Below, piece after piece: positions 33,450 to 34,352 of a DNA stretch of 64,000 bases. A program made the position numbers and the translations under genes. The first letter of the stretch is position 1. Every line of letters begins with the position of its first letter. Origin of the DNA: Candidatus Methylomirabilales bacterium (lineage in GTDB: Bacteria > Methylomirabilota > Methylomirabilia > Methylomirabilales > CSP1-5); assembly GCA_046758505.1 (NCBI GenBank), contig JBHIAH010000001.1, positions 83,898 to 147,897 on the forward strand. Direction: 5' to 3'. The notes beneath the pieces were generated by a model, which was not told where the DNA came from, made no database searches, and saw only the letters and a program-made list of their open reading frames with translations.

Positions 33450-34352
33450 ATGCACTCCCTCCGCCAGATCCAGCCGGACTACTTCCTCCAGCGCTTTGTA
33501 TCGCCCCCCATGGCCTTTCAGCCTGGGCAGTTCGTCATGGTCAAGCCCTCGGGATCGCTCGATCCCTTCCTGCCAAGGGCCTATAGCATCCTGAGAGTCC
33601 AGCGCCACATGACGGGGAGGAGAGGGAAGCGGGAAGACGTGGTGGAGATCCTCTATAAGGTGTTGGGAAAGGGGACCACCGCGCTTTCGCGCCTCAAGCC
33701 CGGCGATCGGGTGGACCTGCTGGGCCCGCTGGGAAATGGCTATCGCGTGCCGCAGGACCTCACCACGGCCCTGCTGGTAGCGGGAGGAATCGGGGTGCCC
33801 CCGGTCGTCGCGCTCGCTGAACGGCTGGCCGGTTCACAGTTCCCGGTTCACAGTTCAGGGCAAGGAAAAGCTGGACTTCGGTCGTCGGTCGTCGGTCGTC
33901 CCAAAGTGGTGGCCTTTATCGGGGGCAAATCGTCGACCGATGTTTTGTGTCTCACCGACCTTCGAAAGGCAGGAGCCGCGCTTCAGGTGGCCACCGAAGA
34001 TGGCAGCCTCGGGCACCAGGGGCTTGTGACCGATCTCCTCGAATCGTATGTGCGGTCATCGGTCAACGGACTTCGGTTAACGGTTTATGCATGCGGTCCT
34101 CACGCGATGCTTCACGCCGTTGCTCGGATCGCCGAGCGATTCCAAATCCCCTGCCAGGTTTCCCTGGAGGCCCACATGGCGTGCGGCTTCGGGGCCTGTA
34201 TGGGGTGCGTTATACCAGTTCAGAGTTCAGAGTTGAGAGTTGAGAGTTCGAGACAAACTATGAACCGTGAACCGTCAACCATGAACCAGCGGAGCTATAA
34301 GTTGTGTTGTAAGGATGGGCCGGCCTTCGACGCCTCGGAGATTGTCTGGTGA
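33450..34352 (+). CDS. pyrK: Dihydroorotate dehydrogenase electron-transfer subunit, with three repeat-encoded insertions
   Basis: FQPGQFVMVKP, RAYSI, VYACGPHAML, and 2Fe-2S Cys cluster CGFGACMGC...CCKDGP. ATG 33450; GTG 33438 is an alternative. Confidence 0.8.
   Translation: MHSLRQIQPDYFLQRFVSPPMAFQPGQFVMVKPSGSLDPFLPRAYSILRVQRHMTGRRGKREDVVEILYKVLGKGTTALSRLKPGDRVDLLGPLGNGYRVPQDLTTALLVAGGIGVPPVVALAERLAGSQFPVHSSGQGKAGLRSSVVGRPKVVAFIGGKSSTDVLCLTDLRKAGAALQVATEDGSLGHQGLVTDLLESYVRSSVNGLRLTVYACGPHAMLHAVARIAERFQIPCQVSLEAHMACGFGACMGCVIPVQSSELRVESSRQTMNREPSTMNQRSYKLCCKDGPAFDASEIVW
33832..33900. repeat. GGTTCAC/AGTTCMS x2 plus CGGTCGT x3 arrays inside pyrK
   Basis: GGTTCAC AGTTCCC GGTTCAC AGTTCAG, an A-rich spacer, then CGGTCGT x3. 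In frame; encodes SQFPVHSSGQGKAGLRSSVVGR. Confidence 0.85.
34053..34087. repeat. CGGTCAT CGGTCAA CGGACTT CGGTTAA CGGTTTA array inside pyrK
   Basis: Five units in register, in frame (RSSVNGLRLTV), just before the conserved YACGP. Confidence 0.7.
34218..34286. repeat. Inverted heptamer arrays inside pyrK, between the Fe-S cysteines
   Basis: Left arm GTTCAGA x2, GTTGAGA x2, GTTCGAG. Right arm TATGAAC CGTGAAC CGTCAAC CATGAAC. Confidence 0.85.

Follow-up and report, generated by a model that had tools for sequence, protein, structure and literature searches.

Introduction

The literature on dispersed heptanucleotide repeats in bacteria goes back to 1990, when they were first described in cyanobacteria as short tandemly repeated repetitive (STRR) sequences, reportedly by Mazel and colleagues. 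In this study, we analyzed arrays of heptamers in pyrK, the gene for the electron-transfer subunit of dihydroorotate dehydrogenase B (DHODH B), of a Candidatus Methylomirabilales bacterium. The gene lies in a stretch of 64,000 nucleotides (GenBank assembly GCA_046758505.1, contig JBHIAH010000001.1, positions 83,898 to 147,897 of the forward strand), which is called the window here and whose numbering is used throughout. Arrays were found at three places in pyrK, named site 1 (33829-33900), site 2 (34053-34087) and site 3 (34217-34288). Our results suggest, with a probability of roughly 0.78, that they are tolerated passenger copies of a genome-wide heptamer class, which have long been fixed, are translated with the enzyme and have been filtered down to frame-preserving steps.

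Two further kinds of repeats are close to this situation. First, palindromic elements of Rickettsia are said (by Ogata and colleagues in 2000, and by Claverie and Ogata in 2003) to lie in frame in conserved protein genes, where they are reportedly translated, surface-located and tolerated. The pyrK arrays share with them the in-frame translated repeats in conserved proteins, and site 3 is likewise palindromic. However, the Rickettsia elements are palindromes of 100-150 nt with unique sequence, not tandem heptamers, and there is no sequence relationship. An extra in-frame segment of this kind was observed at site 1 (+18 residues) and site 3 (+16 residues) but not at site 2 (28 vs 29 residues), and only site 3 folds, sites 1 and 2 being without hairpin potential. 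Second, the small dispersed repeats (SDR) of Nostoc are, reportedly according to Elhai and colleagues in 2008, mini-elements of 21-27 nt capable of nested insertion. In size and nesting, they may be comparable to a 24-nt element (ACTTCGGCGAGCTCAGTCGAGCCG) that we found in relatives of the organism.

Heptanucleotides are the most abundant class of long simple sequence repeats (LSSR) in many bacteria, as Mrazek (2007) is quoted in PMC4679880 and PMC4692102, and GGGNATC repeats show a preference for about four units (PMC4692102). LSSR and STRR arrays have a unit of 7 nt, 3-10 copies with a mode near 4, a dispersed and mostly intergenic distribution, several families and no known function, all of which they share with the arrays described here. 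The differences are that many of our arrays consist of two arms with complementary 5-nt cores, and that several are translated in housekeeping enzymes at sites used throughout the order. The four-unit heptanucleotide elements of Geobacter metallireducens have another unit sequence (GGACCGG) and were interpreted as regulatory RNA elements; no comparison of frame, length ladder or turnover was reported for them (PMC2700814). The TAACTGA direct repeats of Beggiatoaceae, Cyanobacteria and Bacteroidetes are also dispersed heptamer arrays spread across distant phyla, but they carry stop codons on the forward strand, which, by an argument that holds for the pyrK arrays as well, dictate the tolerated orientation and position, and they are almost wholly intergenic, just upstream of start codons (PMC4679880). 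Finally, the coding heptanucleotide tract of neuO is read through and gives a full-length protein only when the number of units is divisible by three, and it ranges from 3 to 53 units, with 65.6% of 64 genomes out of frame (PMC13001214). In contrast with neuO, which is an accessory, phage-borne surface-modification gene, pyrK is a housekeeping gene with 3-4 units per tract and essentially all alleles in frame. Overall, the pyrK arrays belong with the dispersed repeats of the LSSR/STRR type, and in their behavior they resemble the in-frame palindromic elements of Rickettsia rather than neuO.

Array sites in pyrK

The gene and the arrays in it are as follows.

33450..34352, forward strand: pyrK coding sequence, DHODH B electron-transfer subunit, 300 codons (open reading frame (ORF), Pfam, PDB, identical protein MFQ5846148.1)
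33829..33857, forward strand: site 1 left array of GTTCA-core heptamers (GGTTCAC AGTTCCC GGTTCAC AGTTCAG), a perfect 14-nt duplication, translated SQFPVHSS
33858..33877, forward strand: site 1 spacer (GGCAAGGAAAAGCTGGACTT), translated GQGKAGL
33878..33900, forward strand: site 1 right array, TCGGTCG x3.3 with 100% identical units (Tandem Repeats Finder (TRF), lag-7 scan), translated RSSVVGR
34053..34087, forward strand: site 2 decayed CGGTCAN-type array (CGGTCAT CGGTCAA CGGACTT CGGTTAA CGGTTTA), encoding RSSVNGLRLTV
34217..34249, forward strand: site 3 left arm, AGTTCAG/AGTTGAG x4.7 (TRF), between the third and fourth Fe-S cysteines
34256..34288, forward strand: site 3 right arm, TGAACCG TGAACCG TCAACCA TGAACCA (TRF), complementary to the left arm

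The product has the FAD/NAD-binding ferredoxin-reductase fold (Pfam PF00970, PF00175 and PF10418) and a C-terminal 2Fe-2S cysteine motif (the invariant C245/C250/C253/C287), and pyrD adjoins the gene. Its best relative of solved structure is the Lactococcus PyrK (PDB 1ep1_B, E 1e-22). An identical protein is encoded in one NCBI metagenome-assembled genome (MAG), where the start was placed at GTG 33438, four codons further upstream, and in five Logan assemblies. For both the protein and the locus, the best matches were Candidatus Methylomirabilales MAGs.

At site 1, TRF reported 33829-33856 with period 14 (2.0 copies, 100% identity) and 33832-33857 with period 7 (3.7 copies). Loop lengths at all three sites were compared between 33 NC10-type loci and a set of about 110 PyrK sequences from outgroups. 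At site 1, the loop from GGxGxxP to the next strand has 37 residues in the window and 30 or 37 in the NC10-type loci, compared with an outgroup mode of 19, so site 1 is a true insertion of about 18 residues. The loop at site 3 (CxxC to CxDGP) has 33 residues in both the window and the NC10-type loci vs 17 in the outgroup mode, a gain of about 16, and this insert cuts the match to PF10418 to 21 of 41 profile positions.

Site 2 behaved differently from the other two. Its loop (TxDGS to CGP) has 28 residues in the window and in the NC10-type loci, with an outgroup mode of 29; it is no net insertion but the native helix-to-strand turn. The array was not reported by TRF at a score of 30. It has 19 of 28 lag-7 matches, a level reached by 20 regions of the window (the other 19 being obvious arrays) vs 0.13 in triplet-block shuffles, and near-perfect four-unit CGGTCAN arrays occupy the same place in loci L004 and L005. 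Because such matches are rare in shuffles and orthologues carry near-perfect arrays, site 2 is taken to be real, though decayed. Its length was 27 residues in 70 of 81 orthologues, all variants were nested insertions (+8, +9, +16 and more), and no unit-number ladder was found among these 81. Four loci (L003, L008, L009 and L089) carry non-repetitive DNA of identical length here. In L010 (near position 6500; PyrK 50% identical), an array of another heptamer, (GCCACCA)x3.7 encoding TSHQPPAT, leaves the loop length unchanged and represents an independent array from another family in the same place.

The first-pass annotation of this stretch had described arrays at 33832-33900 and 34053-34087 as two of three insertions in pyrK. 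The first array was recovered by TRF and the second proved real although decayed; the read-through peptides quoted for them, which lie in ...LAGSQFPVHSSGQGKAGLRSSVVGRPKV... and ...YVRSSVNGLRLTVYACG... of the ORF translation and of the identical protein, were correct. Its count of insertions holds for sites 1 and 3 (37 vs 19 and 33 vs 17 residues) and fails for site 2 (28 vs 29). It had also proposed that fixed, non-repetitive counterparts in relatives would speak against active repeats, and for 34053-34087 this is largely what was seen, with 70 of 81 lengths invariant, non-repetitive DNA of the same length and no net insertion. Its ranking of pyrK as the most invaded gene holds for the window, with three sites vs one each in carA, pyrC and pyrD.

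Reading frame and unit number

The three sites were extracted from 30 NC10-type loci and 86 orthologous proteins. All Methylomirabilales orthologues have array-derived sequence at the same three sites of pyrK, and the pyrK ORF is intact in 29 of the 30 loci. The DNA-anchored lengths at sites 1 and 3 fall into a single class modulo 3 in 17 of 18 closely related loci, the exception being L105, and the distance from the pyrK stop to a conserved pyrD motif is 2 modulo 3 in all eight distinct loci despite ranging from 92 to 200 nt.

Whichever frame is read, a heptamer array encodes one and the same cyclic heptapeptide, such as SRFTVHG or RSSVVGR. Stop codons are absent from the GTTCAnn and CGGTCrT strands, so that tolerance of an array requires only a length divisible by three and no in-frame TGA. 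The latter matters at site 3, where three consecutive TGAAC units necessarily put one TGA in frame. The unit that would carry it reads TCA in the window and TCA, TCG, CCG or GCA in all orthologues. Such observations indicate, at the level of sequence, that the arrays are translated. Programmed frameshifting, translational bypass and splicing out were considered and rejected, since frame conservation and stop purging would then be needless. Tryptic peptides across the inserts would include, for example, those at the AGLR/SSVVGR junction or TMNREPSTMNQR.

The unit number at site 1 follows a ladder. Among 84 orthologous proteins, 63 had inserts on a 7-residue series, with 21 (1 protein), 28 (15), 35 (34), 42 (10) or 49 (3) amino acids. 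After similar inserts had been collapsed, 29 of 46 groups were on the ladder (rough binomial P 4e-14, ignoring kinship), and at least 10 independent events of plus or minus 21 nt could be recognized, in either arm. Between L004 and L006 (93% identical genomes), the length of site 1 changes by exactly 21 nt, and there are further differences of 51, 12 and 69 nt at other places in pyrK and pyrD. The off-ladder lengths are due to a CAGTCCT family in the right arm and to the nested 24-nt element. It had been noted earlier that 7 is not a multiple of 3 and that perhaps only three-unit steps of 21 nt survive; the arithmetic is right, and on an evolutionary scale the ladder bears out the suggestion.

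The architecture of site 1 is constant in Methylomirabilales orthologues, with about four GTTCAnn units, a GGnAAr-rich spacer and 3-4 CGGTCrT units; an equivalent of the spacer is also kept in an element of pyrD. The units themselves are uniform within a lineage and differ between lineages (GTTCACG x4 in L001, GTTCAGG x4 in L093, GTTCAAC in L096, GTTCACA/GTTCCC in the window). Since each unit is read in a different frame, selection on the protein cannot maintain nucleotide-perfect units, which imply an ongoing homogenization at the DNA level. In more distant relatives (L099-L103, metagenome contigs with 44-48% identical PyrK that are probably further members of the phylum), site 1 is occupied by GGCACAG, GGGATCA, CCCCCAC and GGGACTC heptamers. 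These units, some of them G-rich or C-rich, are similar to the GGGNATC repeats known from Xanthomonas and Nostoc.

Heptamer arrays in the window and the pyr operon

The pyrK arrays do not stand alone: they belong to a class of repeats that occurs throughout the genome and mostly between genes, a point that the first-pass annotation had missed. A lag scan found 24 period-7 arrays in the window vs 0.2 in shuffles, and other lags gave 0-4 arrays each except for lag 14 (the double period), which gave 14. For site 1, chance periodicity was ruled out, with 20-24 regions per window vs 0.13-0.2 in shuffles. The arrays form about 17 clusters, 11 intergenic and 6 intragenic, and fall into four families by core: GTTCA/TGAAC, GGTCG/CGACC, GTCCA/TGGAC and CAGC/GCTG. 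The usual size is 3-5 units (3.3-4.7 units per array in TRF), often arranged as a pair of arms whose 5-nt cores are complementary and which enclose a short spacer. These arrays have the properties of dispersed heptanucleotide repeats of the LSSR/STRR type, namely a tandem unit of 7 nt, many mostly intergenic copies and turnover between related genomes. Our results extend the heptamer repeat class to the methanotroph phylum NC10 (Methylomirabilota), and full-text literature searches found no paper describing heptamer arrays in Methylomirabilis.

The operon has the order pyrR-pyrB-pyrC-carA-carB-pyrK-pyrD, and its region (25300-36100) holds 11 of the approximately 17 clusters, including all six intragenic elements (one in pyrC, one in carA, three in pyrK and one in pyrD). 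The features outside pyrK are listed below.

27301..27329, forward strand: pyrC, N-terminal part, (GTTCAGG)x4.1 read in frame (TRF, ORF translation, Pfam)
29072..29161, forward strand: carA, interdomain linker, hairpin-type CGACC/GGTCG element read in frame (TRF, ORF translation, Pfam)
34349..35365, forward strand: pyrD coding sequence, GTG start overlapping the pyrK stop (ORF; Pfam DHO_dh from residue 39)
34371..34459, forward strand: composite element as in pyrK site 1 at the pyrD N-terminus, (GTTCACG)x4.1, A-rich spacer, GTCGTCG/CGGTCGT x5-7 (TRF)

In carA, the flanking Pfam domains span residues 6-131 and 215-391. In pyrD, the first 37 codons or so are array-derived, and the element is translated as SRFTVHGSRKKGSRRRSSVTGRRSS.

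Some further observations were made in the same region. In the carA-carB spacer (29799-30169), three arrays, each from a different family, occupy 29846-29941, and a small tautomerase-like ORF (MPVVHIHMLEGRSVEQKK...) comes after them; among relatives, L007 has the tautomerase-like ORF without arrays, L008 has another array family, and L001 and L004 have a spacer of 12-29 nt. A possible PyrR binding-site RNA (RF00515) lies upstream of pyrR at 25348-25459, with a score of 50.6 bits (E 1e-4) that is below the gathering score of 54.

Outside the phylum, GTTCACG arrays are read as (SRFTVHG)n in annotated 'hypothetical proteins' of Burkholderia pseudomallei and Acidobacteria MAGs (P0122, P0123, P0125 and P0133). 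The GTTCACG unit therefore occurs in distant phyla and yields spurious ORF calls. A peptide search with the idealized array translation yielded for the most part short ORFs that are spurious, from Burkholderia pseudomallei, Acidobacteria and metagenomes, and no list of array-bearing enzymes, and cluster look-ups of PyrD, PyrC and CarA for strain variants matched CarA alone, as a singleton.

Proposed explanation

We propose that the fixation of heptamer copies in permissive PyrK loops predates the divergence of the Methylomirabilales, perhaps through an ancient single insertion rather than recurrent targeting. The trapped copies would simply be translated in loops that tolerate extra residues, and the resulting peptides may be neutral. 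Turnover continues, probably through gain and loss of units (by slippage or unequal exchange), homogenization within arrays, replacement of cassettes by recombination and, in relatives, nested insertion of the 24-nt element. Purifying selection on PyrK would let pass only the outcomes that preserve the frame, which for whole units means changes in threes (21 nt, 7 residues).

Several points weigh against this explanation. First, the ladder statistic takes no account of phylogeny. Second, the elements at sites 1 and 3 span 72 nt each, but the net gain is only 48-54 nt, and the heptamer periodicity at site 2, with no change in loop length, is not explained by simple insertion. Third, no orthologous pair of intergenic arrays with steps of 7 or 14 nt was found in the comparisons made (L004/L006 and the carA-carB spacers), where differences in presence and absence were seen. 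Finally, the same three loops hold different families throughout the order, and site 1 does so beyond it, which could reflect targeting or selection and not just passive tolerance, and the pyr operon contains every one of the six intragenic elements seen in the window.

Cassette turnover

The replacement of whole arrays is most evident in L094 and L096, whose flanks are 99% identical and whose site 1 cassettes are unrelated: 102 nt with (GTTCAGG)4...(CAGTCCT)4 in L094 (1880-1990) and 141 nt with (GTTCAAC/GTTCACG)5...(GGACGTT)4.5 in L096 (1880-2030). Similarly, the unit families at site 3 differ between strains that are 98% identical upstream (GTTCA/TGAAC vs CAGTCAG/GCTGACA). The intergenic arrays also vary in presence, the carA-carB spacer having three in the window, a different family in L008 and none at all in L007. 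The 24-nt element (peptide TSASSVEP) was found in 17 copies in 13 NC10 loci (for example L097:1880-1990, L091:1380-1450, L093:2080-2110 and L005:380-410), all of them inserted directly behind CGG within a heptamer array and pointing the same way as the genes. There are longer variants of 27 and 51 nt, so that every length is a multiple of three, and a search of the window found no copy.

Such a pattern might be produced by an active system that targets arrays, in which mobile or gene-converting modules, together with the 24-nt element, re-invade or overwrite the same loops by templated conversion. The unrelated cassettes within nearly identical flanks, the differing site 3 families of strains that are 98% identical upstream, the strict placement of the 24-nt element, the arrays at site 2 that leave length unchanged (with a different heptamer in L010) and the different site 1 heptamers of distant lineages would all fit. 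On the other hand, ordinary homologous recombination between co-occurring strains explains the swaps, and three single nucleotide polymorphisms (SNPs) cluster just upstream of the L094/L096 cassette, as expected of a short recombination tract. Concerted evolution by slippage explains the homogeneity of units. Inspection of the flanks revealed no recognizable target-site duplication and no donor copy was identified, no search aimed at transposases having been made. We consider such a system unlikely, although it retains some plausibility. If true, it would be a previously undescribed, repeat-driven diversification of loops, with enzyme loops hypervariable at the strain level and occasional frame-broken alleles such as L105.

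Structure at the protein and RNA level

In an AlphaFold2 model of PyrK with a mean predicted local distance difference test (pLDDT) score of 73.5, the core was well predicted, and values below 50 were found only at the site 1 insert (residues 132-147), the site 3 insert (residues 261-279) and the Fe-S loops. The inserts are predicted to be surface-located and disordered and to leave the fold intact. At site 2, residues 203-212 form the turn between a helix (193-203) and a strand (210-215), with a pLDDT of 76-87.

Another explanation is that the Ser/Arg/Gly-rich inserts (e.g. SRFTVHGS...GK...RRSSVVGR) have been selected as protein, as a linker or an interaction or regulatory segment of DHODH B. 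The presence of a site 1 insert in essentially all Methylomirabilales orthologues, the recurrence of the G-K motif of the spacer and of the basic RRSS motif, and the occurrence of the same composite at the PyrD N-terminus might suggest so. However, the units are perfectly identical in nucleotides though their frames differ, the segments are hypervariable in sequence and length even between 99% identical flanks, and they are predicted to be disordered. Moreover, the same arrays are plentiful in non-coding spacers, and some orthologues have only a stump (e.g. VVALAERLAASGFRVVGRPRL). We regard selection on the peptide as improbable.

A function at the level of nucleic acids (hairpins, stability, pausing or protein binding in mRNA or DNA) that keeps arrays in the pyr genes is given about the same low credence. 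Site 3 (minimum free energy -22.8 kcal/mol, z -4.1) and the intergenic array pairs (z -4.6 to -5.7), the latter as long hairpins interrupted by periodic 2x2 internal loops, fold much more stably than shuffled sequence, and arrays are over-represented in the pyr operon, which holds 11 of 17 clusters. Yet no structure is evident at site 1 (z -0.7), site 2 (+0.2) or the N-terminal element of pyrD (+0.9). Covariation at site 3, examined in two registers, gave 73-77% pairing with no excess over shuffles (64/500 and 396/500), and a scan of 25-36.5 kb against Rfam found no family at the arrays, the sub-threshold PyrR site being the only match. A selected structure at site 3 is not claimed here, the pairing being accounted for by the conserved complementary cores. 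In the window, the left-arm unit opposite TCA reads GTTGA, which restores pairing; such compensation was seen in one of nine sequences only.

Unit number and on/off switching

The first-pass annotation had also raised the possibility that switching between on and off states is tolerated or exploited. In a contingency locus of this kind, slippage of single units would act as a switch for pyrK (and pyrD) in the manner of neuO. Such switches exist, as neuO proves (PMC13001214), and a 7-nt unit in a coding region makes one conceivable, but the assemblies and orthologues point the other way. Five Logan assemblies, independent of each other and from the same species, were gapless relative to the window over 1.5-3.4 kb and contained two polymorphic sites, both SNPs; neither they nor the MAG had an indel. 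About 25 independent orthologous loci were in frame vs one that was not. Thus, neither frame-breaking variation among same-species assemblies nor a long uninterrupted tract, as in phase-variable genes of the neuO type, was found; the tracts have 3-4 units, against the 3-53 units of neuO and its 65.6% of 64 genomes out of frame, and pyrK encodes a subunit of a housekeeping enzyme. One of the two SNPs is in a CGGTCAC unit of pyrD (T/C at 34428), and two of the five Logan contigs break off at precisely 34400, where the (GTTCACG)4 array also ends.

The only locus out of frame, L105 (Ga0105072_1012249, 330-900), has six GTTCA units instead of four in the left arm of site 1 (+14 nt), and at site 3 a further lesion (-23 nt) brings the frame back, so its N- and C-terminal parts are in one frame and the middle 140 codons in another. 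Possible explanations are a pseudogene, an OFF variant and a chimeric assembly. A chimera is as likely as a real allele, because the 1.5-kb contig comes from a sample series with many co-occurring strains. Taken with the other data, we find a contingency locus very improbable and do not retain the idea of switching.

Chance periodicity or an assembly artefact, for which the weak array of site 2 (19/28, unreported by TRF) might speak, is practically negligible, given 0.13-0.2 regions in shuffles vs 20-24 observed, five independent assemblies of identical sequence and orthologue arrays at the same sites.

Significance

For annotation, the arrays split Pfam domains (PF10418, 21/41) and give rise to small ORFs that are spurious, among them the 'hypothetical proteins' with SRFTVHG. 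In a wider sense, the origin and dynamics of dispersed heptanucleotide repeats are still unexplained, and arrays trapped in an enzyme gene offer a natural filter experiment, in which the reading frame records which mutational steps took place and survived. The ladder of lengths, the purged stop codons and the swapped cassettes in near-identical strains provide a concrete and testable picture of how such repeats turn over.

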